A DNA stretch of 64,000 nucleotides from Puia sp. (GCA_035317125.1 DATHHO010000194.1:17930-81929), one strand, 5' to 3'; shown: positions 2,120 to 20,427, counted from the first letter of the stretch. The notes: generated by a model not told the origin, from the letters alone. Translations and numbers: made by a program.

Positions 2120-3196
2120 TTACTTTCCCATAAAAAAATCAAGCAGGTCCTGCTGCACCTGGGCGGTATTCTCCTGTACCATCCAGTGTCCCACGCCTTT
2201 GATCTCCGATTCTTTTACATGCTCCGCCACCAGCCGGCAATGATCCCCAAGGAACGATGCGGCCTGGTATTCCCCGCCCATAGCCAGCAGGGGCATTTTC
2301 AGCTTGTGTTTCGCCAGCTCCTTATTATCTTTTGCATCCTGTTCGAAATTGCCAAACCAATGGAAGGCCCCCGTTGTGGCGCCGGGCTGCGAATAAGCCC
2401 TGACAAATTCATCGACCTCTGCCCTGGTAAAGGCGTCGTTCACATGCCCGACCACCGGCCAGAAATTCGTGAGGAACAACCGTTCCCTTCCCGCGACCAG
2501 CGCGCCCGATGCGGAAAAATTAAAAAAGCCAAACCACCAGGCCTGCGCCCTGACCATGCTCCACACCGGCTCGATCCCCGGCAGCAAAGCATCCATAAGC
2601 GCTATTTTCTTTACCTCGTCGCCAAACTGTGCGGCATAGGCATAGGCTACCATCAGCCCGATGTCATGCCCGGCGAGGTTGATACTCTTGTAACCCAATT
2701 TTTTGATCAGCTCGTGCAGATCGGCGGCCATCGTCTTCTTGTCATACCCACCGGCTGGTTTGTCCGACTCGCCGACACCGCGCAGATCGGGCGCGATCAC
2801 CGTAAAATGTTTGGAGAATTCGGGCAGGAGCCGGTTCCACATATACCAGTTCTGACCAAAACCATGCACCAGCAGCAGGGGCTCGCCTTCGCCGCCGATG
2901 ACATAGTGGATCTTCACCCCGTTGACCGTCGCATACTGATCTTTGAAATTGGCGGGCGGGGTCGCGGGTTTGAGAGAGGCGTCCGCGTTGGCTGTTCCGG
3001 AGGCTCCGGAGGCGGAGGGACTTGCGCTTGGTGCGTCTGTGACGGAGGCTGCGCTGGCGGAGTCGGTCGGGTTGGTCGCCGGGGCCGTTCCGGATGCCTT
3101 GTCGCCGTTGTTGCAGGCGGAAAGAAGCAGGAGACAGCAGATGGACGCGAAGGCCATGGACCGCGCGGGGCGGGGGAGTATTATCTTTTTAAACAT
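2120..3196 (-). CDS. Alpha/beta hydrolase lipoprotein (epoxide hydrolase/dehalogenase-like)
   Basis: Lipobox LLSAC, Ser/Ala/Thr/Pro linker, HGFGQNW oxyanion motif, GHDIG Asp nucleophile, GVGHW catalytic His. Confidence 0.9.
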   Translation of the reverse strand: MFKKIILPRPARSMAFASICCLLLLSACNNGDKASGTAPATNPTDSASAASVTDAPSASPSASGASGTANADASLKPATPPANFKDQYATVNGVKIHYVIGGEGEPLLLVHGFGQNWYMWNRLLPEFSKHFTVIAPDLRGVGESDKPAGGYDKKTMAADLHELIKKLGYKSINLAGHDIGLMVAYAYAAQFGDEVKKIALMDALLPGIEPVWSMVRAQAWWFGFFNFSASGALVAGRERLFLTNFWPVVGHVNDAFTRAEVDEFVRAYSQPGATTGAFHWFGNFEQDAKDNKELAKHKLKMPLLAMGGEYQAASFLGDHCRLVAEHVKESEIKGVGHWMVQENTAQVQQDLLDFFMGK

Positions 3197-3258
3197 GGGT
3201 TTTTTTGAGTGGGTTGTATGTAATTTAAACTAAAATTTTTTATATCCTCTATTCCGGG

Positions 3259-4980
3259 ATGCAGAGGACGGCGGAGATCATCCCGGAAATAGTACATTTG
3301 ATCCTGATGATCCCATCCACCAAGAAATGGCCTTTCCCCGAGCCGGACCCGAATGTCTGCGGCGCCAGCGTCGACAAGGCCGCTTACTGGAATTTTATCA
3401 ATACGCAGCTCGGCAACGGCGATCTGATCAATGATCCGGTCACGGATCCCGTCACAGGCCCAGGCGCCGATCCAGTCACGGACCCAGCGACAGAAAAGGA
3501 CCAGCCCGTACTGCGAAGATATTTCGGCTGGGGCGCCGCGGCGGGCATAGGGCTGCAATCTGCCGGTCAATTACTAAAAGATATTTGCGCGGGCGATGAA
3601 CCCCGCTGTCCGGTCTGTCCGCTGAAATACAACTGCGCCTGGTATGCGGGGCAACGCGGGACAGACAGCCTGTCGGGCCATGAGACGGGTCGGGCGGCAA
3701 CGGAGCGGGCAGCGAAGGATCGGTCCGCCCCTTCCTTTGCGGATTTTTTCTGCGGGGCCGGTGGGCTTTCGCTGGGCTTCGAATGGGCGGGGCTGAACCC
3801 GAAGATCGCCACCGATCTCGATCCCTGGTGCATGGCCACCTATGCATACAACCGCAGCAACGCCACGATCGAAATGTCGGCGGGCGATATCAGGGACTGG
3901 CTGGCCAGCCACAAGCGGAGAAAAAGCTGGGATATCGACATCGTTACGGGTGGCGTCCCCTGCCAGAGCTTCAGCACGGCCAACCGGCAGCGCAGGGACA
4001 ACGACCCCCGCGACAAGCTTTATACCTCCCTGCTCGATGCCTGCCGGATGATCGGCCCCAGGTTCATCCTGATCGAGAACGTTTCGGGTATGCTGAAAGA
4101 ATACGATGGGGTCATCCATGACCTCGACAGGCTGGGTTATCATGCGGCGCATATCCTCCTCAATGCAAAGGACTATGGCATCCCGCAAAACAGACGCCGG
4201 GTCTTCTTCCTCGCCGTCTCCGGCAAACATTACCCCGATGCGGAGGCAAGACTGCGGTCCACCATCGCGGCCATCGTGGACAAAAAGACCGGTGTACCCA
4301 TTCCCCTGGCGGCGGCTATCGGTGATCTGCCAACGCTGCTGGCGCATTCCAAAAGGAACGATACCAGTTTTAATAATGCCGCCTCGGGTCGTGCTTTTAC
4401 GATGCATACCCTTTCGGGAGCCAGCGGCTGGGTACGGTCCCTCCATGCCGGGGCCACAACGGTCCCTCTGTTCCATCACAAGGCGAGATATAACAACCGG
4501 CGCGATATCGAGATCTTCGGGCGGCTCAGACCGGGAGAGAATTCGCTGGCCGCCTCCATCCGGGAGATCATGCCCTATGCTAACAGGAACGGGATCTTCA
4601 AGGACAAATATTTCAAGCTGCGGCATGATGAATATTGCAGGACCATCACGGCGCATATGCGGTATGACTGCAACATGTATATCCATCCGGAGCAGGCCCG
4701 CGGACTGACGGCGCGGGAAGCCGCACGGGTACAGAGCTTCCCGGACGATTATGTATTCCTCGGCAATTTCCAGCGCCTCTACCACCAGATCGGGAATGCC
4801 GTACCACCCATGCTGGCAAGGGTCCTCGGCGAGGCCATCCGCGAAAATCTCCATGCAGCCAGCGGGGGAAGTGCCGGGCACACGACGGCCATCGGGGGAA
4901 GCCCTGATCACGCGCCGCTGGTTAAAAAAATTCAGGCCATGGGGCGATCACCGAAAAAACAGCTTAATGAAAGCATTTGA
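3259..4980 (+). CDS. DNA (cytosine-5)-methyltransferase 1 with N-terminal EndoIII-type Fe-S loop
   Basis: Motif I DFFCGAGG, IV GGVPCQSFS, VI ENV, VIII YGIPQNRRRVF, IX/X LTAREAARVQSFPD...QIGNAVPP; N-terminal C-X6-C-X2-C-X5-C at residues 110-126; start codon uncertain. Confidence 0.9.
   Translation: MQRTAEIIPEIVHLILMIPSTKKWPFPEPDPNVCGASVDKAAYWNFINTQLGNGDLINDPVTDPVTGPGADPVTDPATEKDQPVLRRYFGWGAAAGIGLQSAGQLLKDICAGDEPRCPVCPLKYNCAWYAGQRGTDSLSGHETGRAATERAAKDRSAPSFADFFCGAGGLSLGFEWAGLNPKIATDLDPWCMATYAYNRSNATIEMSAGDIRDWLASHKRRKSWDIDIVTGGVPCQSFSTANRQRRDNDPRDKLYTSLLDACRMIGPRFILIENVSGMLKEYDGVIHDLDRLGYHAAHILLNAKDYGIPQNRRRVFFLAVSGKHYPDAEARLRSTIAAIVDKKTGVPIPLAAAIGDLPTLLAHSKRNDTSFNNAASGRAFTMHTLSGASGWVRSLHAGATTVPLFHHKARYNNRRDIEIFGRLRPGENSLAASIREIMPYANRNGIFKDKYFKLRHDEYCRTITAHMRYDCNMYIHPEQARGLTAREAARVQSFPDDYVFLGNFQRLYHQIGNAVPPMLARVLGEAIRENLHAASGGSAGHTTAIGGSPDHAPLVKKIQAMGRSPKKQLNESI
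3433..3492 (+). repeat. 12-nt in-frame tandem repeat (DPVT-DPVT-GPGA-DPVT-DPAT)
   Basis: GATCCGGTCACG / GATCCCGTCACA / GGCCCAGGCGCC / GATCCAGTCACG / GACCCAGCGACA. Confidence 0.8.
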
Positions 4981-6025
4981 TCTGTGCTCCGGGATCGGCG
5001 GGTTCAGGGTCGGGGCGGAGCTGTCGCGCATAGGCCACCGGGTTAGCTTTGCCGCACACAGCGACATGGATGCCTATGCCAACAGGGGTTATGCCGCGAT
5101 CTTCGGGGACAGCCTCAGCCTTGGAGATATCCAGCAACACACCCGTCTGCCGGATGAATATGGGATCGGGGGTCCGCTGCCAGCCCAGGAAGAAAGAGCT
5201 GCGCGGATCGCGGAGGCCTTGCCGGACTTCGATCTGTTGTTTGCCGGCTTCCCCTGTCAGCCGCATTCGCTGATGGGCAACCGCAGAGGCACGGGGGACG
5301 ATCGCGGAAATCTTTTCTATGACATCGCCGGGATCATCAGGGTAAAACAGCCGGAGTATTTTATCCTGGAAAACGTCAAGGCCATCCTGTCCGTGAACGG
5401 GGGCGCTTTCTACCGGGAGATCGTCGACACCCTTGAACGCCGGTTGAACTACAAGCTGCGGGTCTGGTCGCTGAATGCGCTGGATTATGGAGTGCCGCAG
5501 ATCAGAAGAAGAGTGTTCTTTGTCGGATCAAGGGACAACGATCTTCCCACCGGACCTCCGCCGCGTGTCGATATCGCGGGATCGGAATACCCCACCACCT
5601 GGCATCTGCTGGAGCGTGGCGCCGGCGAAAAATATTTTCTCTCCGGGAAAATCCTGAAGACCATCCTCAAGAGCGAACACAAAGGGTACAAAAGAAAAGC
5701 GGAGATCAACAAGCTGATCGCAAGACCCCTGTGTAAGAGCATGCATAAGATGCACCGCGCCAGCCAGGACAACTATTATTCGGAAGATTTTATCCAGGGT
5801 CATTATCAGGCAGACAGCCTCGCCGTGCAGCTCGCGCCTGTCCCCGATCCAAAGATCCGGAAGATCACGCCCCGGGAGGCCTTCCGTATACAGTCCTTTC
5901 CCGACGGGCATATCGACCGGCTGCTCGATGCCGGTCTTTCCGACACCCGCCTCTATATGCTGGCCGGAAATGCCGTACCCCCTCTCCTCGTAAAGGCGAT
6001 CCTTGATCATGTGTTCGGGGAATGA
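4967..6025 (+). CDS. DNA (cytosine-5)-methyltransferase 2
   Basis: Start reassigned to ATG 4967 (MKAFDLCSGIGGF, motif I at the N-terminus); AGFPCQPHS, ENV, YGVPQIRRRVF, ITPREAFRIQSFPD, AGNAVPP; overlaps the MTase 1 stop by 14 nt. Confidence 0.92.
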   Translation: MKAFDLCSGIGGFRVGAELSRIGHRVSFAAHSDMDAYANRGYAAIFGDSLSLGDIQQHTRLPDEYGIGGPLPAQEERAARIAEALPDFDLLFAGFPCQPHSLMGNRRGTGDDRGNLFYDIAGIIRVKQPEYFILENVKAILSVNGGAFYREIVDTLERRLNYKLRVWSLNALDYGVPQIRRRVFFVGSRDNDLPTGPPPRVDIAGSEYPTTWHLLERGAGEKYFLSGKILKTILKSEHKGYKRKAEINKLIARPLCKSMHKMHRASQDNYYSEDFIQGHYQADSLAVQLAPVPDPKIRKITPREAFRIQSFPDGHIDRLLDAGLSDTRLYMLAGNAVPPLLVKAILDHVFGE

Positions 6026-6048: not shown

Positions 6049-8598
6049 TTACCGGGTGGGTTGCCCAGGAATGTTTCCCTCAAAAAAGAATAGTTTCCGG
6101 TGCAGCTCATTAAATTTATTATGAAAGATCCCTGCTATGGCGCTGTCGATATTACCCATGCTCCGGGTCGACAAAACCCAGTTCAGGGGCACTTCCCCCG
6201 CCGTCGCCTCCAGCGGCACCTGGATAAAATTGCCGCCCAGTTCCCGCTCCGTATAGTTTTTCAGCAATTCGGTATAGGTCCTCGAATATCCACCCCGTAT
6301 GTCATAGATCCCATAGCCGACCGAACTGATTTCGTTCAGGAACCCCGTATTCGTATACTCATCCTTATCGCCAAACCGGAGCTGGATGACATAAGGCTTT
6401 ATATGCCGGTGGCACAGGCTATCTTTCAGGGATTGCAAAATTTCCAGCATAGTCTTGGCGCCCGTGTTCTCGACATACCCCCCGTCCACATAGTGGTACG
6501 TGCGGTCTCCATTCTGTCTGACGGCGGCCGAAGGGGAGATCAGGGGAAAACGGGAACTGAAATTGACCGCTGTGCTATAATTGACACCACCCCTTAATTT
6601 CTCCAGCAAAAGGTCTCTGTCTCTGTAAAACAAAAAGCTGTCCGGTTTCGTGTTGCTGAGAAAGCATTGCAACCCGCTTTCTACCTCCGTCGTGTTGATA
6701 AACCAGGCCGGGGCGACATCGGGGTTGCAGGTCTGGCTCCGGATAAAGTCCGAGGAATAAATATTTCTATCCCCTGTCTTCTTAAATATTTTATGATAAT
6801 CATGTTCCCAGGCTTCTTCCAGCGCGATCGCCCTGTCCAGACGCCCGATGTGAACAGGCCAGAAATAATTGAGGATATCCCCGTAAAACATCTTTGACAG
6901 CACCGGGCTCAGCAGATCTTTGCTAAAGAACTCCCTGCTCTTCCGGCGGTAGTAGGTCGTGTCGTAGATGGCCGTCGTATCGACCTCCAGATAATTTACG
7001 GCATTGAAAAAACTAACGCCAACGGACCCTCCGGAGACCGTAGAAAAGGCATAGATGTCCTTTCTGAATTCCGGGAAATGGTCCTGTATCCCGGCGAGGA
7101 GCATCGCCGTAAACGCGCCTGTCCGAAGAGCCCCTCCTTCCGCGGTGATGAAGATCACCGGATAGACCCAGTCCGGATCGGAGTGGCAGGTATCGGATAA
7201 GGCCGTCCCGCCTTTCCACCGGGTAAGATGCGCCGAATCTTGTAAATGCCGGCCGAACCATCTGTTGAAATGGCTGTTCAGGGACAGACGCGTATCTGCC
7301 ATTTTTCCTTGTTCGTTATAGTGTACCGGGTGATCTGCGTCGACATACGACACGATCAGGAACCAGGCCACGAGGAGCCACCGGATAGAGATAAAGACCC
7401 CTTTCCTGTACCGGTAATCGATATACAACAAGCCGGAATATACCCCCTGCCAGCATCCAAAGGACAGACAGACAAGCCCCGGAGCGCCTATCCAGTCGCT
7501 GGCATACAAAAAGTTCACCGAAATGAGCAATATGACAGCAAGTGAACTCAGGGCAATGGTCCTCACCTGCCGGTGCAGGGTCCTGTAGAACGCAGGGACA
7601 TTCTTATAAACCCACCGGTAGGAACCGGCGTTGTTAATCACATATTTGTAGCGCTGGCGCCTGAAGTTCGGCAGATATTCGTTCTCAAAATGGGTGGGTG
7701 GCCGGAAAGCCAGCGGGGCCTGCTCGCTCTCGAGGATCAGGTGATCCGGAAAACTCCCCGCCGGCATGGATTTTACGATTGCGACAAACCGCTTATAGGC
7801 CTTTTTCAGCTTTTTCGCCGGCTCGCTGTTATTAAAAAAACTTGTCTTCCGGATGGTGAAAATATAATCGTTGTAGATCCCATAGAGTTTGTTTGCCCAG
7901 TCTTCCTCTTCCTTGGGCAGTTTAAAAAAGTCCACCGCCCATTTCCACGAAGGGTCCTTCCTGAATCTGACATTGAAGCCGTCATCCAGATAAAACCGGG
8001 CAAGCCCCGCGGACACCAGGATGAGCAGGATAATGACCGTCGAAAAGGGCCAGGCCACCGACCAGAAGCTTTTTTCCGATCCCCCGTCCAACACGTGGAG
8101 ATTGCTCAGGGTGACCGTCACGACGCCAAGCAGGACGACCAGGAAAGGCAGCAGAAGATAGACCATACTGAAGAACCGCTGAAGTTGTTTACGGTAATTC
8201 ACGCGGCTGCCGGAAAGCGATTTCCCCGAGTTGTCGCTGATATAGATCTTATACCGCGCGCCGAATTCGGCCAGGACTGCCCATCCCGCGACGCCCACCA
8301 GCAAAGACAGCAGGGAGCCGAAATGAAAGGCCGACAAGTCTTCTATGACGATCAGAACGACATCCTTTCCCTGAGGCAACGCGAGGAAAATTACCCCGGC
8401 AAGAATATTAAATACAAAGAATAAACGGGTCGGCTTGAATACTTCCATAAAGTCCGTAACCTTGTCGGATATCGCGATGCTGTCTTTGGGCTCCGGTCCC
8501 CTTGAGGCAAACTGCAGTTTTCTGATCTCGATCCCGACAAGCCGGAATATATACAATAAGATGTCCAGGAGACGGGTGATCCATTTAAATAAGTTCAT
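6049..8598 (-). CDS. Multi-pass membrane protein with C-terminal patatin/cPLA2-like phospholipase domain
   Basis: Several hydrophobic helices in the first ~420 aa; AEGGALRTG glycine loop, TVSGGSVG nucleophile Ser, YVDGGY catalytic Asp. Confidence 0.85.
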   Translation of the reverse strand: MNLFKWITRLLDILLYIFRLVGIEIRKLQFASRGPEPKDSIAISDKVTDFMEVFKPTRLFFVFNILAGVIFLALPQGKDVVLIVIEDLSAFHFGSLLSLLVGVAGWAVLAEFGARYKIYISDNSGKSLSGSRVNYRKQLQRFFSMVYLLLPFLVVLLGVVTVTLSNLHVLDGGSEKSFWSVAWPFSTVIILLILVSAGLARFYLDDGFNVRFRKDPSWKWAVDFFKLPKEEEDWANKLYGIYNDYIFTIRKTSFFNNSEPAKKLKKAYKRFVAIVKSMPAGSFPDHLILESEQAPLAFRPPTHFENEYLPNFRRQRYKYVINNAGSYRWVYKNVPAFYRTLHRQVRTIALSSLAVILLISVNFLYASDWIGAPGLVCLSFGCWQGVYSGLLYIDYRYRKGVFISIRWLLVAWFLIVSYVDADHPVHYNEQGKMADTRLSLNSHFNRWFGRHLQDSAHLTRWKGGTALSDTCHSDPDWVYPVIFITAEGGALRTGAFTAMLLAGIQDHFPEFRKDIYAFSTVSGGSVGVSFFNAVNYLEVDTTAIYDTTYYRRKSREFFSKDLLSPVLSKMFYGDILNYFWPVHIGRLDRAIALEEAWEHDYHKIFKKTGDRNIYSSDFIRSQTCNPDVAPAWFINTTEVESGLQCFLSNTKPDSFLFYRDRDLLLEKLRGGVNYSTAVNFSSRFPLISPSAAVRQNGDRTYHYVDGGYVENTGAKTMLEILQSLKDSLCHRHIKPYVIQLRFGDKDEYTNTGFLNEISSVGYGIYDIRGGYSRTYTELLKNYTERELGGNFIQVPLEATAGEVPLNWVLSTRSMGNIDSAIAGIFHNKFNELHRKLFFFEGNIPGQPTR

Positions 8599-8622: not shown

Positions 8623-9681
8623 TCAGAATTTAATGGGGCCGCCGATCGGCACTTCCACGGCAAGCCTGTACATAAAATCTTTTGCGGTAGGCCTGACCGC
8701 ATCACCGGACACCAGATTCCCGCTGGCATCTTTCTTTGCGGATGCCACGGGCAACAACAATCCGAATTTTAGCCGGATAGACTGCAGCGCCTTTGGAGCA
8801 TTCTCGCCAAAGGCATTGAAGGCCGACTCGAAATAAAGGTTCTGCCGGTAATAATTGTAAGGAATGGAGTCGGTCTTTACGCCGGTCAGCCAGGGTGAAT
8901 AATAATACCCCGCCATCAGATAGGACCCCTGGAATATCCCGTTGATCTCCATGATCCCCACATGACCGCCCACATAGGCATTTCCGTTAAAGACCTTCAG
9001 CCCGCCACCGATGAATCCGGCCCTCATCGTCCAGGGATGTATCCGGTTCAGGGAATAGTTGAGGCTTACCACGGCCTCGTTCAACCGCAGGGGAATGGAA
9101 TTACTGCTGTCGCTGGAAGACAGTCCCGCATCCGCCCCGATCAGGGCAAACGAAAAATGGCGCCCATACATACGCCTCCTGTCGGTAAGGTTTACCTTAA
9201 ATAAGATATCCAGGAGCTCGCTGTTCACTTTGATCCCGGCTATCGACTTGATAAAAGAGCCCACAAAGAAATTCGGACTGGGATTTCCGGTCGTGAAATG
9301 TATGATGATGACATTACTATTGGAAAAGATGAGGGTGACGGTAAACCCCGAAGTCGCGGTGTCCAGGACAAACATCCTGTTACAGGTGGCCATATGGGCC
9401 GCCACGGCCAGGTTGCCGGAGATGGCTAATCCATTCCTCCCGTTAAAATCATACAGCACCGATCCCGACACCGAGTTGACGTCCGCGGGAAGGTTGATCA
9501 CGCTGAAGGTAAAGGGGTGTCCGTTCAGTACTGTCCTTTCCACCTGCTGGCTCGATGTCCCGCCGGAAAAGGTGGACGTATAATCGAACACCAGGTTGTC
9601 GGGTGGCGTCTGCCCGAATGAATGGATGAACAACAATAGGATGGAAAGGGTAGAAAGGGCGGCTGGAATTGCCTTTTTCAT
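8623..9681 (-). CDS. Hypothetical secreted protein, possibly outer-membrane beta-barrel
   Basis: 352-aa ORF with signal peptide MKKAIPAALSTLSILLLFIHSFGQ, alternating amphipathic strands in the C-terminal half, terminal Phe; ends 24 nt before the patatin gene start. Confidence 0.75.
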   Translation of the reverse strand: MKKAIPAALSTLSILLLFIHSFGQTPPDNLVFDYTSTFSGGTSSQQVERTVLNGHPFTFSVINLPADVNSVSGSVLYDFNGRNGLAISGNLAVAAHMATCNRMFVLDTATSGFTVTLIFSNSNVIIIHFTTGNPSPNFFVGSFIKSIAGIKVNSELLDILFKVNLTDRRRMYGRHFSFALIGADAGLSSSDSSNSIPLRLNEAVVSLNYSLNRIHPWTMRAGFIGGGLKVFNGNAYVGGHVGIMEINGIFQGSYLMAGYYYSPWLTGVKTDSIPYNYYRQNLYFESAFNAFGENAPKALQSIRLKFGLLLPVASAKKDASGNLVSGDAVRPTAKDFMYRLAVEVPIGGPIKF

Positions 9682-9901
9682 ACAATGAGTTTTTGGTTTG
9701 CCTACTCTATATCCCGTTTTCGGCGATCCGGGCGACCAGAAGATGGTTGGTCGGACAAAGCTCCATAGCCCGGAAATCCCTTCCTAACGTCATTCCGCCT
9801 GTCCAGACCACGTATTATTCTGGTAGAGAAAGAGGTGTTTTCACGTAGACTCGGAATTTTATTTAGATATATTATTGCATTTCAACCTTAAATCTTAATT
9901 T

Positions 9902-10564
9902 ATGTCACAAACAAGATCCACAGTCATTGTAGTTATTGGCTGCCTTGCAGCCGGGTTTCTTGCCGGATACCTGGCATTTAAACCCAGGACGGAGACCACG
10001 AACACAACCGCACCCGCCGCCGCAGCCACATCCGACATCCCTGACGAACACGCATTCGATCAACTGGAAATCAGGGGCCACCGGTGGGGACCTCATCCGA
10101 CCCCGGGAGCGAACGACAACCTTGATGCCTATAGAAAATCGACGGCATTATTAAATCTGTCACTGTTCCATAATGGAGGAAAGACAAAATGCATTGTTCA
10201 TGAACCTTCGACCGCACTCGATTATGATACCGGCTTTTTTCCCGATTTCATCGCCACTCATCCCGTGGTAAGTAGCAACTACAGATGGGTCATCGGCTTA
10301 TACCCCGAGATATGCAGGGAAAAAATGCGCGATGGCACCATCCGGCCGAGGGTCAGTATTTTTATGATCCCTACCATGCGCAACATAGATACGGTAAATC
10401 ATCGTTATGATATACTGGATTATGATTCTATAAAGAATACGCCAGGTTTCGACATTTATTATAAGACCGACCCGGCCAGAATCAAGCCCAATACGGCGCT
10501 GGCAAATAGGATAAAGCTGTATGGCGATCAATTCATTTATGACCTGGGGACCATTTTCCCATAA
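9902..10564 (+). CDS. Hypothetical protein with N-terminal membrane anchor
   Basis: 220-aa ORF; single hydrophobic helix TVIVVIGCLAAGFLAGYLAF; AT-rich leader; first gene of a four-gene run. Confidence 0.8.
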   Translation: MSQTRSTVIVVIGCLAAGFLAGYLAFKPRTETTNTTAPAAAATSDIPDEHAFDQLEIRGHRWGPHPTPGANDNLDAYRKSTALLNLSLFHNGGKTKCIVHEPSTALDYDTGFFPDFIATHPVVSSNYRWVIGLYPEICREKMRDGTIRPRVSIFMIPTMRNIDTVNHRYDILDYDSIKNTPGFDIYYKTDPARIKPNTALANRIKLYGDQFIYDLGTIFP

Positions 10565-10576
10565 ACCCGACCGAGC

Positions 10577-11233
10577 ATGCTTTTCTTCTACAGCACCGTG
10601 ATCGCCATCGAGCTTATCTGTCTGATCTTTTCCCTGTTCTTACTTTCCGGTAAAAGGACAGGATGGTACAGGCAGCTGATCTGGTTGCTGGTTTTAGTAG
10701 TGGGCGTAGAATCATCGGGCTTCTATATTTATTTTATCAGACATTTCAGAAGCAATTATCTGCTGTTCAACATTTTCCTGCCGGTGTATGTTTTTTACAC
10801 CGGCTGGATCATGTACCAAATGTACCGGCCATTATCCAACAGCAGGATCCTGATAACGGGCATGCTGGCCGTCTTCAGCGCGATCTACCTGTTGGAAAGC
10901 ATACCAACCCATTTTATCGTGTTCAGCGCCAACGCCAATACCTCATTTTCCATATGCATGGTGATCATTTGTCTGGTCTACTATTATTTCCTGATTAAGA
11001 CGGAAGATTTTATCGACGTGTACAGGTATGCGGATTTCTGGCTGGTGACCGGATTGTTCTTTTTCCATTTTGTAAGCACCGCCAGCAATTTCTTTTTTAA
11101 ATATATGACCATCATAAATAAGGATTCGATCGTCCCGATCAGGTATAGTATTGAGATCCTGATCAATTTTATCCTATATTCCTGTTGGGTTTATGCCTTT
11201 ATATGCAGATACAGAAAGACAATATCATCCTGA
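10577..11233 (+). CDS. 7-TM integral membrane protein (putative sensor subunit)
   Basis: 218 aa, about seven hydrophobic segments with short loops; overlaps the kinase gene. Confidence 0.85.
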   Translation: MLFFYSTVIAIELICLIFSLFLLSGKRTGWYRQLIWLLVLVVGVESSGFYIYFIRHFRSNYLLFNIFLPVYVFYTGWIMYQMYRPLSNSRILITGMLAVFSAIYLLESIPTHFIVFSANANTSFSICMVIICLVYYYFLIKTEDFIDVYRYADFWLVTGLFFFHFVSTASNFFFKYMTIINKDSIVPIRYSIEILINFILYSCWVYAFICRYRKTISS

Positions 11234-11994
11234 TCATTGCCGTGATCACCGGCATTTTCCTGATGGCCGCGCTCTTTATGTTTTTTTATATATCGATCTT
11301 TATCGAACGTAAGAAAAGGCATAAGGAGGAGAAAGAGCGGATGAACCAGCTGTTCGGGAATGAGCTGATCCGGACGGAAGTGGAAGTACAGGAACAGACG
11401 AGGAAGAACCTCGCCAGTGATCTGCATGACAATATAGGACAGCTGCTGAGCCTTACCAGCATGATCCTCGGGTCGCTCAACATAAAAGATGCGGAAAAGG
11501 CGGAGCAGAAAATTTCCGAAGCACAGGGCCTGGTGATCCGTTCCATAAAAGAACTGAGGCAACTTTCAAAGCTTATCCATGGAGAGCAGCTTATCCAGCA
11601 GGGCCTGACCGAGGCCATAAGACAGGAGATCAACTGGCTCGAACGTAACGGGCATTATTCGATAGCGTTTCACGGGCCGGAGGGGACTGCCCCCTTTGAG
11701 GATGCGGAGAAGAACCTGTTCATGTACCGCCTCTTTCAGGAATCACTCAATAATATTATCAAACATGCGGAGGCCGACAAGATAACCGTTGAATTGAAGT
11801 ATATTGAAAACAGGGTCGCGCTGTCCATCGGGGACAACGGCATAGGCTTCGGGCCCCGGGACGCGGCGGCGGAGGGACAGGGTTTGGGGCTGAAGAATAT
11901 GCAGCGGAGGGTCGCCATGCTGAATGGCGCCATGAACATTCAATCCGAGCCAGGACGGGGTACCCTTATTTATTTTTCCATTCCATACGCATGA
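11203..11994 (+). CDS. Histidine kinase (HisKA_3 + HATPase), single TM, no sensor domain
   Basis: Start reassigned to ATG 11203; TM IILIIAVITGIFLMAALFMFFYI; H-box ASDLHDNIGQ; FQESLNNIIKHA, DNGIGF, GLGLKNM, GRGT. Confidence 0.92.
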   Translation: MQIQKDNIILIIAVITGIFLMAALFMFFYISIFIERKKRHKEEKERMNQLFGNELIRTEVEVQEQTRKNLASDLHDNIGQLLSLTSMILGSLNIKDAEKAEQKISEAQGLVIRSIKELRQLSKLIHGEQLIQQGLTEAIRQEINWLERNGHYSIAFHGPEGTAPFEDAEKNLFMYRLFQESLNNIIKHAEADKITVELKYIENRVALSIGDNGIGFGPRDAAAEGQGLGLKNMQRRVAMLNGAMNIQSEPGRGTLIYFSIPYA

Positions 11995-12650
11995 TCATGG
12001 CCACTCAGAAAATAAATATTGCCCTGGTAGACGATCACGCCCTGTTCCGCAGCGGCATTGCCAACCTTTTATCCGAATTCGCCGATCTGTCCATTGTATT
12101 TGAAGCAGCGAACGGTAAAGAGTTGCAACAACTTCTGCCGGGTCATCAGGAGGTGGATGTCATATTAATGGATATCAATATGCCCTTGGTGGATGGTTAT
12201 GCGGCCACGGTCTGGGTCAGGCAACATTACCCGCTTATCCAGATATTGGCTTTAAGCATGTTTGACGATGACCTGGCTATCATAAAAATGGTGAAGGCGG
12301 GTGCAGGCGGATATGTTTTGAAGGAATCGAAGCCCGCGGAACTATACCGTGCCATCAATGAGATAAAGGAGAAGGGACTTTATATCAATGAAATAGTCTC
12401 CGGCAGGATCATGCGCTCCATGCAGCAGCCCGAACAACCACCCGCGGGCGAATCCTTGATCACGGTGAGAGAGGCGGAGTTTATACAATATTGCGCCTCC
12501 GAACTTACCTATAAGGAGATCGCGGATAAAATGAAGGTAGCCGCAAGGACCGTGGATAACTATCGTCAGTCCCTTTTTGACAAACTGGACCTGAGATCGA
12601 GAGTGGGGCTGGTGCTGTATGCCATAAAGAACGGGATCGTAAAATTATAG
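11991..12650 (+). CDS. NarL/LuxR-family response regulator
   Basis: REC domain LVDDH...ILMDINMP, K in GYVLKES; C-terminal LuxR HTH TYKEIADKM...RTVDNYRQSLFDKL; ATGA overlap with the kinase. Confidence 0.95.
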   Translation: MIMATQKINIALVDDHALFRSGIANLLSEFADLSIVFEAANGKELQQLLPGHQEVDVILMDINMPLVDGYAATVWVRQHYPLIQILALSMFDDDLAIIKMVKAGAGGYVLKESKPAELYRAINEIKEKGLYINEIVSGRIMRSMQQPEQPPAGESLITVREAEFIQYCASELTYKEIADKMKVAARTVDNYRQSLFDKLDLRSRVGLVLYAIKNGIVKL

Positions 12651-16527: not shown

Positions 16528-17676
16528 ATGGCTTCCTCCAAACAAAGCGCCCCGTTCTATACAAGGCTGGCAATGGTGCTGATCAGCCTGATCTCGCTGT
16601 TTTACATCGCCATCGCTGGTAAGGAAGTGCTGGCTCCCCTCCTTTTCGCCCTGCTCTTCTCGGTGCTGCTCCTGCCCCTCGCCAATTTTCTGGAGCGGCG
16701 GCTGAAGCTCCCCCGTAGTCTGGCCGCCCTATCTTCGGTCCTATTGCTGTTGCTGTCTATCGCCGCGGTCTTATATCTCGTCGGCTCGCAGATCAGCAGC
16801 CTGGCAAACGACTGGCCTTTGTTCAAGAAACAGGTCTCTTCTTCGCTGCAGGACGTCCAGCACTGGATCTCGCAGACCTTCCACGTGGAAGTCGAGGACC
16901 AGATGAATTATGTTGAAAACACGACCAGCCATATCCTCAGCACCGGACCTGCCGTGATCGGCGGCGCCGTCCTGTCCGTATCCTCCCTCCTGCTGTTCCT
17001 GGCCTTTACCATGATCGATACCTTCTTCCTGCTGTATTACCGCCGGCTGCTGGTGCGCTTCCTCGTCGCCGTATTCAAGGAAGATAATTCCGTCACCGTG
17101 TACGAGATCATCGCGCAGGTGCAGACCCGCATCCGGCAATATATCCTCGGACTGCTGCTGGAAATGATCATCGTGTCCAGCGCCTCCTGTCTCGGTCTGT
17201 GGATCATCGGGGTCCGGTATTCGATCCTGCTCGGTCTGCTGGCCGGTCTGCTGAACTTCGTTCCCTATATCGGCATCTTTATCGCGCTGCTGCTCAGCAC
17301 CCTCGTCACGTTTGCCACGGCCGGCGTGGCGAAACTGCTCTGGGTGATCTTCACCCTGCTGGGCATTCATCTGGTGGACGCCAACGTGCTCCTGCCCATG
17401 ATCGTCGGATCCAAGGTAAAGGTCAATGGCCTGATCACCATCCTGGGCGTGATCATCGGTGGCAGCGCCTGGGGCATCACCGGCGCATTCCTCGCCCTGC
17501 CGGTCATCGCCATTATCAAGATCGTATTCGACCGTATAGAGCCACTCAAGCCCTGGGGCATGTTGCTGGGAGATGAAATTGACGAGAAACAGCCCGAGCC
17601 GCTGAAGGAGGAGATCAAAGAAGAAGGAGCACAGAACGGCAATACTACTCATAACCAATCAGCGACGAACCCGTGA
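16528..17676 (+). CDS. AI-2E family transporter
   Basis: Multi-TM; LAPLLFALLFSVLLLP, LLNFVPYIG, ANVLLPMIVGSKVKVN, WGITGAFLALP motifs. Confidence 0.92.
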   Translation: MASSKQSAPFYTRLAMVLISLISLFYIAIAGKEVLAPLLFALLFSVLLLPLANFLERRLKLPRSLAALSSVLLLLLSIAAVLYLVGSQISSLANDWPLFKKQVSSSLQDVQHWISQTFHVEVEDQMNYVENTTSHILSTGPAVIGGAVLSVSSLLLFLAFTMIDTFFLLYYRRLLVRFLVAVFKEDNSVTVYEIIAQVQTRIRQYILGLLLEMIIVSSASCLGLWIIGVRYSILLGLLAGLLNFVPYIGIFIALLLSTLVTFATAGVAKLLWVIFTLLGIHLVDANVLLPMIVGSKVKVNGLITILGVIIGGSAWGITGAFLALPVIAIIKIVFDRIEPLKPWGMLLGDEIDEKQPEPLKEEIKEEGAQNGNTTHNQSATNP

Positions 17677-19238
17677 ATACCGCCTTGCAACAAAGCCTGC
17701 TCTCCCTCGTGAACAACAGCACGGACTATATGGCCACCGCCGACAAGGATGGCAATGTGCTCTACATGAACCTCGCGGGCAGAAAGCTGGTGGGCCTCGA
17801 TCCCACGCAGAACCTCGCGGGATTGAATACACGCGATTACCTGTCGTCCTGGGATCTTGAAAAAGTGACCACAGAAGTGCTGCCCTGCGTGGAAGGTTCC
17901 GGAAGATGGACCGGAAGGCTCAGCCTCCGGCACCTGCTCACCTCCGAGGTCATCCCCTGCCAGGCCAGCTTCATCCGCATCGACGATCCGGAGACCAGCG
18001 CCTATATCGGAAGAGGAGTCACCCTGCGGGACCTGCGGCCCGAGATCAACGCCAGACAGGCCCTTTCCACCAGCGAACAGCAGCTGAGGATGGCCGTTGA
18101 GCTGGCACAGCTCGGCACCTGGAGCATCGATCTGTCCACCATGACCGCGACCTTCTCCAAAAGATCGAAGGAACTGTATGGCTTCACGGGCGACGAAGTA
18201 TCGTTTGCCGACGGCATCATGGCCATCGACGAAGACGACCGTGACCGCGCCATCGTCAATTTCCAGAAATCCCTTGACCCCCGGAACGGAGGCATCTATG
18301 AAGACACCTATGCCATCCGCAACCTGATCACCGGCCGGCAGCACGCGATCAACCTGCAGGCAAAAGTTTATTTTAACGAAAAGAACGAGGCCTGGCTGAT
18401 CGCCGGCACCCTCCAGGACATCACAGAACAGAAGACCGCGGAAAAAGACCTCGAAGACCAGGTGCAGCGCAGGACCGAAGAGCTGAACAAAGCGAATTCC
18501 AATCTTTCCCGCAGCAACCAGGAGCTGGAGCAGTTCGCCTTCATCGCCTCCCACGACCTCCAGGAGCCCCTGCGCAAGATCCGCATCTTCTCCGGGCTGC
18601 TGGAAGAAAAAAGCCGGGAAGCCTTCAGTGAAGAAGGCCTCCGCCATCTCTCCAAAATCAGGGCCTCTGCGGAACGGATGGACCGGCTCATCCGGGACCT
18701 GCTGGAGTTCTCGAGGGTAAACATAAAGAATGAACTGAGGGTCCCGGTGGACCTGAACGAGGTGATCCGGAAAGTGCTGGACGACTTCGACCTCGCGATA
18801 AAAGAAAAAAGGGCCATGATCCATGCCCAGCAGCTCCCGGTGATCGAGGCGATCCCCCTGCAGATGAACCAGCTGTTCTACAACCTTATCGGCAACGCCC
18901 TGAAATTCAGCCGCCCCGGCGTGCCGCCGCTCATACAGATCACGGCCAGACGCCTGTCTTCGCGGGAAGCGATGAAATTCTCGGGTCTTGAAGCCGGACA
19001 GCTCTACTGGGCATTCGAGATCGCCGACAACGGCATCGGGTTCGACCCATCCGTGGCCGATAAGATCTTCACCATCTTCCAAAGGCTGAATACCCGGGAC
19101 AAATATGAGGGCACCGGCATCGGGCTGGCCCTTTGCCGGAAGATCGTCAACGCACATGAAGGTCTGATCTTCGCTAGTTCGGAAAAGAAGGCGGGGGCCG
19201 TATTCCACCTGTTCCTGCCCGTAAAGTCCCTTTCGTAG
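17673..19238 (+). CDS. Cytoplasmic PAS-PAS sensor histidine kinase
   Basis: GTG start overlapping the AI-2E stop; two PAS/PAC repeats; H-box FIASHDLQEPLRKI; NLIGNALKF, DNGIGF, GTGIGLA. Confidence 0.93.
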   Translation: MNTALQQSLLSLVNNSTDYMATADKDGNVLYMNLAGRKLVGLDPTQNLAGLNTRDYLSSWDLEKVTTEVLPCVEGSGRWTGRLSLRHLLTSEVIPCQASFIRIDDPETSAYIGRGVTLRDLRPEINARQALSTSEQQLRMAVELAQLGTWSIDLSTMTATFSKRSKELYGFTGDEVSFADGIMAIDEDDRDRAIVNFQKSLDPRNGGIYEDTYAIRNLITGRQHAINLQAKVYFNEKNEAWLIAGTLQDITEQKTAEKDLEDQVQRRTEELNKANSNLSRSNQELEQFAFIASHDLQEPLRKIRIFSGLLEEKSREAFSEEGLRHLSKIRASAERMDRLIRDLLEFSRVNIKNELRVPVDLNEVIRKVLDDFDLAIKEKRAMIHAQQLPVIEAIPLQMNQLFYNLIGNALKFSRPGVPPLIQITARRLSSREAMKFSGLEAGQLYWAFEIADNGIGFDPSVADKIFTIFQRLNTRDKYEGTGIGLALCRKIVNAHEGLIFASSEKKAGAVFHLFLPVKSLS

Positions 19239-19387
19239 ACGGCTCACCGGCGAAACCCGGCGTCAGGCCGCCCAACCTCGGGCCGCCCACCCTCAGACCG
19301 TAAGCCCCCGGTTGTTTTTGGCAATAGCATGCGGATAATGCCGATTTGTCGCTTACACCCTTAACTTTGTCCGAATAATTTGACGGT

Positions 19388-19807
19388 ATGCCAAGATCAG
19401 GACCTATCATCCTTGTAGAAGACGATATAGACGACCAGGAACTCATCACGGAGATCATTGGGGGATCTCCTGTCAGGAATCCGCTGAAGATCTTCCACAA
19501 CGGGCTGCAGGCTTTAGAATACCTGAAAAACTCCACGGAATATCCCTTTCTCATAATCTGCGATGTCAACATGCCCGTAATGAACGGGCTGGAACTGAGA
19601 CAGCATATGCAAGATGACCTGTCCATGCACAACAGGAGTGCACCCTTTATCTTTTTGTCGACCACGGAAGACCGCGAAGTAGTGAAGAAGGCCTTTGCGC
19701 TTTCGGTCCAGGGGTTCTTCAAGAAGCCCTCCGAATTCCGGGAGCTACAACGGCTGCTGGAACTGGCCCTGAATTACTGGAAGCATTGCGAATATCCGAA
19801 GAAGTAA
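19388..19807 (+). CDS. Single-domain response regulator
   Basis: LVEDD, ICDVNMP, FFKKP; upstream TAACTTTG -7 element at 19362-19369. Confidence 0.92.
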   Translation: MPRSGPIILVEDDIDDQELITEIIGGSPVRNPLKIFHNGLQALEYLKNSTEYPFLIICDVNMPVMNGLELRQHMQDDLSMHNRSAPFIFLSTTEDREVVKKAFALSVQGFFKKPSEFRELQRLLELALNYWKHCEYPKK

Positions 19808-19835: not shown

Positions 19836-20375
19836 CTATTTCTCCAGGATGGCCCTGAGATTGGAGAGGCTGGTCTCCATATCCTTGCCCAGCATCTTTT
19901 TCAGATTGAGCAACACATGAAAGATCCGCATGGGGAAATTGCGGGTGCCGCTGAACACCCAGCTCAGCCTGGTCTGATCCTGCGCCAGGGACCGGGTCGT
20001 CATATAGGCGAAGGATACCCCTTTGAAGGGCCGCTCGAAGCGGATCTCCAGATCGATCCTTTCCCCTTCGGTGAGCTTCTTTATTTCCTGCTCGCCCTTG
20101 CCTACGTTCTTATTAGCGCTGTCCCAGGTGGCCACGAAACCAGGCGTACCATCCGTACCCCTGTATTCTTTTTTGGCGTCAGGGTCCATCATCACCCATT
20201 TATTATACTCATTCTGATGGCGGAGGAGTTTGACATAGCCAAAAACGTCCTGTCTGGGCCTGGCGATGGTCACTTCTTTTTCGATAGCGTATTCTTCTTT
20301 TGCAAAGAAGGCCACGACGAGGAGGAGGAGGATAAGGATCCCGAGGATGCTGAGGATGATCAGTAGCGTGTTCAT
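19836..20375 (-). CDS. SRPBCC family protein with N-terminal TM anchor
   Basis: IEKEVTIARPRQDVFGYV...WDS...GKGEQEI...RFERPF pattern. Confidence 0.88.
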   Translation of the reverse strand: MNTLLIILSILGILILLLLVVAFFAKEEYAIEKEVTIARPRQDVFGYVKLLRHQNEYNKWVMMDPDAKKEYRGTDGTPGFVATWDSANKNVGKGEQEIKKLTEGERIDLEIRFERPFKGVSFAYMTTRSLAQDQTRLSWVFSGTRNFPMRIFHVLLNLKKMLGKDMETSLSNLRAILEK

Positions 20376-20427
20376 GCAGCAAACATACGGCGTTCCTTCC
20401 GTTGGGATGGGGTGTATTTACGGCAAA

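Follow-up and report, generated by a model that had tools for sequence, protein, structure and literature searches.

A recurrent four-gene cassette of Bacteroidota as a probable accessory-protein-dependent two-component system built around a seven-helix membrane protein

Much is known, in Firmicutes (LiaFSR, VraTSR, SaePQRS and Bce systems) and in a few Proteobacteria, about histidine kinases that need an accessory membrane protein. DesK and VraS among kinases, and VraR, LiaR and NarL among regulators, belong to systems that sense intramembrane or envelope-stress signals. Here, we analyse a four-gene cassette in a stretch of 64,000 nucleotides from Puia sp. (GCA_035317125.1 DATHHO010000194.1:17930-81929), hereafter the window. 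The window is soil metagenome DNA with the gene content of Bacteroidota, including a SusC/SusD pair, a Reg_prop/Y_Y_Y regulator and OMP_b-brl_3. According to the listing of open reading frames (ORFs), the cassette lies on the plus strand and encodes successively a 220-aa accessory protein that we call g1 (9902-10564), a 218-aa seven-transmembrane (7TM) protein (10577-11233), a histidine kinase lacking a sensor domain (11203-11994 from the ATG conserved in the alignment of homologues, in an ORF that opens with a TTG at 11185), and a 219-aa NarL/FixJ-type response regulator (11991-12650) in which Pfam finds a receiver domain and a GerE helix-turn-helix (HTH). Between g1 and the 7TM gene there are 12 nt (10565-10576). 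The 7TM gene shares 31 nt with the kinase gene when the latter is counted from its ATG at 11203, or 49 nt when it is counted from the TTG, and the kinase and regulator genes overlap by 4 nt (ATGA). These values are exactly those of an earlier note made from the same sequence, which took the 7TM protein for a receptor and g1 for its ligand or the precursor of it. We argue that the cassette is more probably an accessory-protein-dependent (three-component) two-component system encoded in a self-contained operon.

The characterised systems with the closest catalytic cores are LiaFSR and VraTSR (NCBIfam LiaS; PDB VraS and VraR/LiaR). Like them, the cassette combines a HisKA_3 kinase without extracellular sensor, a NarL-type regulator and a separate membrane accessory protein in what seems to be an autoregulated operon. 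However, its accessory protein is a seven-helix bundle without similarity to LiaF or VraT detectable by Pfam or NCBIfam, its kinase has a single transmembrane (TM) helix and no HAMP domain, and it adds a partner with a soluble domain, g1. LiaS and VraS have two TM helices. LiaFSR and VraTSR are also systems of Firmicutes, whereas the hosts of the cassette are Bacteroidota, which have an outer membrane.

Other systems share parts of the logic. The four-part arrangement recalls SaePQRS of Staphylococcus aureus, an autoinduced operon where the lipoprotein SaeP and the polytopic protein SaeQ modulate the intramembrane-sensing kinase SaeS, which works with SaeR (PMC5083920, PMC3748130). The resemblance is architectural only: we found no sequence relation, SaeS and SaeR are of the HisKA and OmpR types instead of HisKA_3 and NarL, and the sae genes are ordered P-Q-R-S while in the cassette the membrane-protein gene overlaps the kinase gene. 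SaeQ also has fewer TM helices than the 7TM protein. In the CpxP-CpxAR system, a regulated periplasmic accessory protein, CpxP, is both an output and a modulator of the kinase. Lipoproteins or membrane proteins also relay signals to a kinase in QseG-QseE (PMC6075780, PMC12691602) and in RcsF-IgaA-Rcs, and there the regulator can be NarL-type (RcsB). Yet, the kinases of the Cpx, Qse and Rcs systems have periplasmic domains of their own to which the accessory proteins bind, while the cassette kinase has none and the 7TM protein would stand in between; no homology was found. The UhpC-UhpB-UhpA system of E. coli also associates a separate polytopic receptor with a HisKA_3 kinase and a NarL-type regulator, but UhpC is a homologue of 12-TM transporters of the major facilitator superfamily, UhpB has a multi-TM domain of its own, and no partner resembling g1 is known. 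Finally, the proteins of the 7TMR-DISM family (PF07695 plus DISMED) link an extracytoplasmic domain, a 7TM bundle and a kinase output, so that the cassette looks like such a protein split over three polypeptides. The difference is that its domains are on separate proteins and that g1 is leaderless in some lineages. On sequence grounds, we assign the cassette to none of LiaFSR/VraTSR, SaePQRS, CpxP-CpxAR, QseG-QseE or UhpABC, because the searches detected no family common to the accessory proteins and LiaF, VraT, SaeP, SaeQ, UhpC or 7TMR-DISM, and the kinase scores far below the equivalog cut-offs. Full-text literature searches retrieved no description of the cassette, nor of such an accessory-dependent system in Bacteroidota, but their coverage was partial and this is no proof of absence.

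The gene order of the cassette recurs among soil Bacteroidota, in about 100 independent loci from isolates, metagenome-assembled genomes (MAGs) and metagenomes. They include Pedobacter, Mucilaginibacter, Chitinophaga, Flavobacterium, Filimonas and MAGs of Chitinophagaceae. In a forward test, we scanned one genome per GTDB species with a three-sequence alignment of the 7TM protein, and read the gene order in the resulting 36 loci by ORF calling and phmmer. All 36 genome loci have, on the same strand, the 7TM gene, an overlapping kinase gene and a regulator gene. The regulator follows the kinase in 37 of 38 genome loci, as it does in the metagenome loci, and the order is kept even where the 7TM protein is only 22-32% identical to that of the window. 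The 7TM gene is adjacent to the kinase gene in every locus with room for it. In the reverse test, we searched metagenome contigs with only the N-terminal TM helix and juxtamembrane segment of the kinase. This gave 67 loci, and the 7TM gene lies directly upstream of the kinase in each of the 65 that have at least 650 nt upstream. Hence, the order is conserved among 7TM homologues, a point that the earlier note had proposed to test, and since it recurs in about 100 independent loci the cassette is neither a chance juxtaposition nor an assembly artefact. The flanking genes vary between lineages, which indicates that the four genes form a conserved unit, and among the loci compared we found no peptidase, exporter or other non-regulatory gene besides g1 that is conserved near the cassette. 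One metagenomic relative (L001/L002, with a 47% identical 7TM protein) encodes g1, the 7TM protein and the kinase without an adjacent regulator; its next gene, for a peptidase M13, is on the other strand.

The overlap between the 7TM and kinase genes is equally regular. Its length ranges from 22 to 43 nt and always fits 3n+1 in 38 out of 38 loci, and the kinase always reads in frame -1 with respect to the 7TM gene. In the window, where the dual-coding segment covers 11203-11233 (+), the ATG of the kinase takes its A from the end of codon I209 of the 7TM gene and its TG from codon C210. Through this dual coding, C210, which is near-invariant, and the conserved N-terminus of the kinase may constrain each other, and the conservation of C210 may result in part from the overlap. 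A long overlap in a constant frame could also mean that a single gene encodes the 7TM protein and the kinase, and that it is broken by a frameshift (a sequencing error or a pseudogene) or expressed as an eight-TM sensor kinase by programmed -1 frameshifting. We give this virtually no chance. Recurrence of the split in all of the about 100 independent loci and conservation of the kinase ATG exclude a frameshift artefact or a pseudogene. A programmed fusion was rejected because it would place the kinase domain in the periplasm (the 7TM protein is predicted to be C-in and the kinase N-out) and because the overlap of the window shows no slippery site of the form X XXY YYZ; none of the best 150 representatives of the 7TM family is fused either.

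The 7TM family itself is large: an exhaustive HMMER search retrieved 700 cluster representatives with E ≤ 1e-3, of which 213 reach E ≤ 1e-10. A word-indexed protein search found only two relatives, both in the same gene order as in the window. Among the best 150 of the 700 representatives, nearly all have 205-230 aa and none is kinase-sized; being too short to hold a kinase, these are stand-alone proteins. Hydropathy shows about seven hydrophobic segments in the window protein. Its AlphaFold2 (AF2) model, built from a 22-sequence alignment, has exactly seven helices (predicted local distance difference test, pLDDT, 90.7; predicted template modelling score 0.86). The earlier note had therefore counted the helices correctly, but the protein, which it described as a pure membrane protein without enzyme motif, is not featureless: 11 residues (E12, E45, N60, N65, F154, W155, G159, Y201, W204, F208 and C210) are at least 90% conserved over 101 members. 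The polar ones are buried in the membrane, with E12 in the middle of TM1, E45 in TM2 and N60 and N65 at the outer end of TM3, and the others, with an aromatic cluster, are in TM6 (F154, W155, G159) and TM7 (Y201, W204, F208, C210). The buried Glu and Asn residues are candidates for a site of contact with a ligand, an ion or another helix. Over the same 101 members, Lys and Arg number 9.4 in the odd loops and the C-terminus versus 3.9 in the even loops, and the protein is therefore predicted to be N-out/C-in.

No family of the libraries searched accounts for this protein. Neither Pfam nor NCBIfam matches the window protein, and no Pfam family matches consistently over the 101 members. A single one of them matches 7TMR-DISM_7TM (PF07695, E = 0.054), and these are stand-alone proteins of 205-230 aa. 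Profile searches of the PDB with the 7TM family, and with two of the g1 groups described below (A and B), gave nothing below E = 0.06. Foldseek comparison of the model with the PDB retrieved only generic seven-helix bundles, such as the TM domains of class C G-protein-coupled receptors (GPCRs) and proteorhodopsin (best E 0.32, template modelling scores of 0.47-0.58), and thus no significant structural match to a microbial rhodopsin or GPCR fold. A microbial rhodopsin was also rejected because TM7 contains no Lys.

The kinase and the regulator fall in well-known families. In the kinase, Pfam identifies HisKA_3 (PF07730, 7.7e-10) and HATPase_c (PF02518, 1.8e-16), both above the gathering score, and the H-box read from the translation, LHDNIGQ, places it in the HisKA_3 class. 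When 38 orthologous kinases are aligned, the start that is conserved is the ATG at 11203 (MQ...). From there, hydropathy predicts an outside tail of six residues and a single hydrophobic stretch at residues 7-33 or so. After it come ERKKRHKEEK, a predicted coil of some 30 residues and the H-box. Pfam, NCBIfam, hydropathy and the alignment revealed no HAMP, PAS or other input domain, in agreement with the earlier description of a one-TM kinase without input. The closest solved structures are DesK (1e-14) and VraS, and the NCBIfam matches are to LiaS (1e-26) and UhpB (3e-29). With 93.7 bits against a cut-off of 450 for the NCBIfam model Strep_LiaS, the kinase has a related core but is no LiaS/VraS equivalog. 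In the regulator, Pfam identifies Response_reg (PF00072, 7e-23) and GerE (PF00196, 6e-12). Its translation contains D14, D15 and the acceptor D61 (in LMDINMP), its NCBIfam match is to UhpA (3e-23), and its closest solved structures are VraR/LiaR-type (2e-27) and NarL.

Since the 7TM protein and the kinase both lack an extramembrane sensory domain, the cue is most likely membrane- or envelope-associated. One could then attribute sensing to the TM helix of the kinase itself, which would respond like DesK to membrane thickness, fluidity or lipid state, leaving to the 7TM protein the role of an inhibitor or scaffold similar to LiaF. DesK is indeed the closest kinase of solved structure, the TM helix is long (about 27 residues) and highly conserved (mean pairwise identity of 51%, against 46-47% in HATPase and HisKA_3), and LiaF and VraT regulate LiaS and VraS, kinases with a homologous catalytic core. 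However, one TM helix with an outside tail of six residues offers little for sensing, and the residues that resemble a buried binding site (E12, E45, N60 and N65) are in the 7TM protein. We consider this explanation quite unlikely. It differs from perception by the 7TM protein only in the partner that perceives the cue, and our computations do not separate the two.

We searched for traces of a partnership between the 7TM protein and the kinase by covariation. We used mutual information with the average product correction on 85-91 non-redundant cassettes (effective number of sequences, Neff, of 60-70). The highest-scoring raw 7TM-kinase pairs were an artefact due to the codons that the two genes share, and we removed them before counting. 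Among the remaining pairs, 17 of the top 30 and 36 of the top 100 involve the TM helix of the kinase, which represents 10% of the kinase columns. As an internal control, HisKA_3, the known interface of specificity between kinases and regulators, holds 18 of the 30 and 55 of the 100 top kinase-regulator pairs, while the TM helix holds 2 of the 100. This regional enrichment fits a TM-TM interface between the 7TM protein and the kinase, whose helices are predicted to be parallel (both N-out/C-in). The reading of the 7TM protein as a membrane partner of a kinase without input domain is well supported. We regard the partnership of the two, which may be obligate, as likely, given the adjacency found in both directions, the conserved overlap and the covariation on the TM helix of the kinase. 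This is the part of the receptor assignment of the earlier note that stands, while perception of the cue by the 7TM protein is suggested by its buried polar residues.

We then turn to g1, the most variable component. A relative of g1 occupies the first position in nearly every locus. It is upstream in all loci with room except one (L026), where it is absent, and it is interrupted in another (L032). Its identity is 20-27%, against 45-57% for the other three genes, and it thus evolves faster. In the window, hydropathy shows one N-terminal hydrophobic segment (residues 3-28) that predicts an N-in protein with its domain outside, and the C-terminus is ...IYDLGTIFP. The protein is thus anchored and exported as the earlier note had proposed, with three Cys instead of two: C14 in the anchor, and C97 and C138, which are not conserved in the closest relatives. 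The sequence V-I-G-C14 fits a lipobox pattern, with 12 more hydrophobic residues after the Cys. Because the hydrophobic stretch continues past C14 and the other members of the same group have anchors without Cys, residues 1-28 (9902-9985) are more likely, as judged from sequence, to be a TM anchor than a lipidation site. In the alignment, the anchors of that group share a small-xxx-small pattern resembling IG-x3-G. We found no match for g1 in Pfam, NCBIfam, PADLOC or the PDB, its homologues similarly have no Pfam or NCBIfam family, a word-indexed search returned no homologue, and the single-sequence AF2 model was unusable (pLDDT 37).

The g1 proteins, which range from 150 to 350 aa, form four groups. 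Group A, that of the window (11 distinct sequences), has an N-terminal TM anchor, and 11 of 11 end exactly at [FYV][DN]xGx[ILM][FW]P-COOH. Group B (Pedobacter and Chitinophaga, about 45) mostly has a lipoprotein signal, and the motif ...ENRGE[LMI]CP-PPxxCxxxGATLL is followed by 0-15 residues. Group C (Mucilaginibacter, about 25) has a signal peptide or lipobox and a duplicated domain, with ...DNGELCPxxC and a short tail. Group D (7 distinct) has no export signal, begins with MPIKLND... and has ...GLDxGxICPPxC followed by 8-20 residues. Profile-profile comparisons link B to C (99%), D to C (96%), D to B (92%), A to C (82%) and A to B (78%). As a consequence, the motif [DN]xGx[ILM][FWC]P can be compared across the family: it is at the extreme C-terminus in group A only and internal in the larger groups B, C and D, and it is conserved across genera instead of hypervariable. 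By this comparison, the tail motif is best described as closing a folded domain some 150 aa long. The family and a version of the motif are therefore conserved, which the earlier note had proposed to test, but the terminal position is not kept outside group A. Most lineages tether g1 to the membrane by a TM anchor or a lipobox. The leaderless forms are group D, a B-like protein (L015) and an A-like one (L119, which ends in YDNGSQYP); a g1 domain without export signal occurs in loci L044-L053 and L108, in addition to L015 and L119.

These data bear directly on the proposal that g1 is a ligand precursor, whose C-terminal D-x-G-x-x-x-P tail would be released or presented to the 7TM receptor in a cell-cell circuit. 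Under this proposal the 7TM protein would be a receptor of GPCR-like topology signalling in trans to the kinase, and its ligand, tethered or released, would be the G-x-[ILM]-[FWC]-P end of g1. The encoding of g1 beside the 7TM gene, the termination of 11 of the 11 group A proteins exactly at the motif, the fastest evolution among the four genes, and the apparent joint autoregulation of g1 and receptor genes, as in many quorum-sensing loops, are all compatible with it. But groups B, C and D have the homologous motif at an internal position, and it is constant across genera, without the diversification of pherotypes. Furthermore, g1 is a domain protein of 150-350 aa that is tethered in most lineages, and its versions in group D, L015 and L119 carry no export signal. 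In the loci compared, the surroundings of the cassette include no conserved processing protease or exporter, and Pfam does not match the defining parts of Agr- or Com-type systems. AgrBDCA does resemble the cassette, as its four genes, which encode a membrane protein, a small protein, a kinase and a regulator, form one autoregulated operon. Yet, there is no match to the AgrB peptidase family, g1 is a folded protein of 150-350 aa instead of a propeptide of about 46 aa, the kinase is single-pass, without a polytopic sensor like that of AgrC, and the regulator belongs to the NarL type and not to LytTR. A released or presented signal peptide, and with it the peptide or protein cell-cell circuit of the earlier note, is thus very improbable in view of the mostly internal motif, the leaderless forms, the missing processing and export genes and the marking of g1 as a regulated gene described below. 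If true, the cassette would be a self-contained protein or peptide signalling circuit in Bacteroidota, where we know of no established peptide quorum-sensing system.

The regulation of g1 is suggested by an element upstream of it. A search for enriched k-mers in 260 nt around the start of g1 found the core GTGTTTTTAC. Of the 83 non-redundant regions upstream of g1, 45 contain it with at most one mismatch, whereas the rate is 4.9% in random windows from the same loci and 3.2% in shuffles. Its frequency depends on the group of g1: 7 of 7 in D, 19 of 22 in C, 15 of 43 in B and 4 of 11 in A. In groups C and D the consensus is CAGGGTGTTTTTACGGTATT, which is flanked by direct and inverted copies and precedes g1 by 60-120 nt, and some group A loci have palindromic versions, for example CCACGTGTTTTTACGTGG and CCCCGTATTTTTACGGGG. 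Sites scoring at least 16 with the position weight matrix (PWM) number 51 in the 27 kb upstream of g1 versus 9 in the 616 kb elsewhere. Several of these nine precede extra copies of g1: the site at 486 in L090 lies before the copy at 563-1459, and that at 2601 in L035 before the copy at 2711-3655. Both copies are part of tandems (with 1903-2828 in L090 and 4002-4973 in L035), and tandem copies each have their own operator-like site some 80-110 nt upstream. A PWM made from groups C and D only has its top score of the locus upstream of g1 in 11 of 47 A and B loci, where 1.6 are expected. The window has a candidate core for the response regulator, GGTGTTTTCACG, at 9834-9845 (+), 57-68 nt upstream of the ATG of g1, which scores 13.5 with the PWM of all groups and is the third best in the 64 kb. 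The simplest reading is that the GTGTTTTTAC-type element is the operator of the NarL-type regulator of the cassette and that g1 heads an autoregulated operon. Because an operator-like element precedes g1, extra copies included, we take g1 to be a regulated accessory or output gene.

The window's best match to the operator PWM is TGGGGTGTATTTACGGCAAA at 20408-20427 (+), with a score of 15.9. It is 33-52 nt upstream of a minus-strand gene (19836-20375) that encodes a 179-aa protein with an N-terminal TM anchor and a soluble domain, and may be a second target of the regulator or a chance match. In loci L045-L047 and L049, a stand-alone gene for a GerE/LuxR HTH protein of 75-78 aa is divergent from g1 upstream of the group D cassettes. 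It has in common with g1 the intergenic region where the operator lies, and its product may be a second DNA-binding protein acting on that operator.

The concentration of operator-like sites on g1 promoters, to the near exclusion of other places and including those of separately transcribed extra copies, could indicate that g1 is purely an output. It would then be an effector, such as a binding or protective protein against a membrane-active compound, and the 7TM protein alone would sense. A change of compartment is easier to conceive for an effector than for the subunit of a complex, g1 shows tandem and internal duplications, and among the loci compared it is the only conserved non-regulatory gene of the cassette and its vicinity. 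On the other hand, g1 and the 7TM gene are separated by 0-12 nt or overlap in most loci, which leaves no room for a terminator or attenuator and thus puts g1 on the same transcript as signalling proteins of low abundance. Most versions of g1 are also tethered at the membrane, where the sensor is, and the small-xxx-small pattern of the group A anchors is a helix-packing pattern. We therefore regard a pure effector as unlikely, and estimate at about one in two the chance that g1 acts as a modulator.

Altogether, we favour the following scheme for the accessory-dependent system. The single-pass kinase alone would sense nothing outside the membrane. The stand-alone 7TM protein, produced from an overlapping and probably translationally coupled gene, would be the subunit that perceives or gates the signal, with its conserved intramembrane Glu and Asn residues as candidate sensing site, and would control the kinase by helix-helix contacts within the membrane. 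The kinase, with its presumably bifunctional core of DesK/LiaS/VraS type, would set the phosphorylation state of the NarL-type regulator, which would bind the GTGTTTTTAC-type operator upstream of g1 and autoregulate the operon. Finally, g1, as the sole component with a soluble domain, would be a co-expressed and regulated modulator, an output or both, like SaeP, CpxP and LiaF-associated proteins. In the window, g1 would act in the periplasm, anchored to the membrane.

Several observations weigh against this scheme. The scores of single 7TM-kinase pairs do not exceed the noise level of 7TM-regulator pairs, one kinase position (23, with a Pro/Ala dimorphism) dominates the covariation, and the consistency of the pairs in membrane depth is not significant (P 0.06-0.77, with an Neff of only 60-70). 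The co-evolution analysis suggested by the earlier note thus gave a pattern at the level of regions and no significant agreement at that of residues, and a physical contact between the 7TM protein and the kinase is something that we infer. The binding of the regulator to the GGTGTTTTTACGG element is similarly an assumption of ours. The window copy GGTGTTTTCACG scores below 9 with the PWM of groups C and D and is a weak match, and no repeat structure is detectable in the intergenic region upstream of g1 in the window. The 7TM partners of group D g1 keep the N-out/C-in charge bias, so that g1 switches compartment while the topology of the 7TM protein is constant, which is hard to square with docking on a fixed face; none of the models considered here explains the switch between exported and leaderless g1. 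Among sequencing runs, the window was found in two soil-metagenome DNA runs only, and L034 in no RNA run.

The cassette brings together two protein families that are outside current domain libraries: a seven-helix membrane protein with at least 700 cluster representatives, and a domain of about 150 aa that evolves fast and contains a G-x-Φ-[F/C]-P motif. Their pairing is unusually strict, as shown by the order in about 100 loci, the long overlap and the operator-like element. If the 7TM protein is the perceiving subunit, the cassette would provide a compact model of a seven-helix bundle that gates a kinase via a neighbouring TM helix. The repeated change between exported and leaderless g1 should constrain any mechanism. 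In addition, the operator and the regulator could serve as a reporter for the inducing condition in tractable Pedobacter, Flavobacterium and Chitinophaga.

The surroundings of the cassette in the window are varied. Scans with Rfam and for tRNAs returned no family and no tRNA, and PADLOC, which holds models of anti-phage defence, matched none of the six proteins tested. Divergently from g1, and outside the conserved core, an ORF at 8623-9681 (-) encodes a 352-aa protein with a signal peptide and no match in Pfam. It shares the intergenic region with g1, and its end, ...GGPIKF, resembles the C-terminus of outer-membrane beta-barrels. A homologue of 350 aa (26% identity) has the same divergent position in L003-L006 and not in the other loci. 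The 352-aa protein is possibly co-regulated with the cassette from the shared region, although we hold this with low confidence. Further upstream, two adjacent minus-strand ORFs, overlapping as called (3259-4980 and 4751-6025), both match C-5 cytosine DNA methylases (1e-59 and 3e-55). Beside them, at 6049-8598 (-), is an 849-aa multi-TM protein with a weak match to patatin-like phospholipases and none in PADLOC. Together, they could be a restriction-modification or defence-type islet beside the cassette. On the other side, a second signalling cluster unrelated to the cassette (16528-19807) comprises an AI-2E family transporter (16528-17676), a kinase with PAS, HisKA and HATPase domains (17673-19238) and a 139-aa ORF (19388-19807) that reads like a stand-alone receiver domain, as judged from its sequence.

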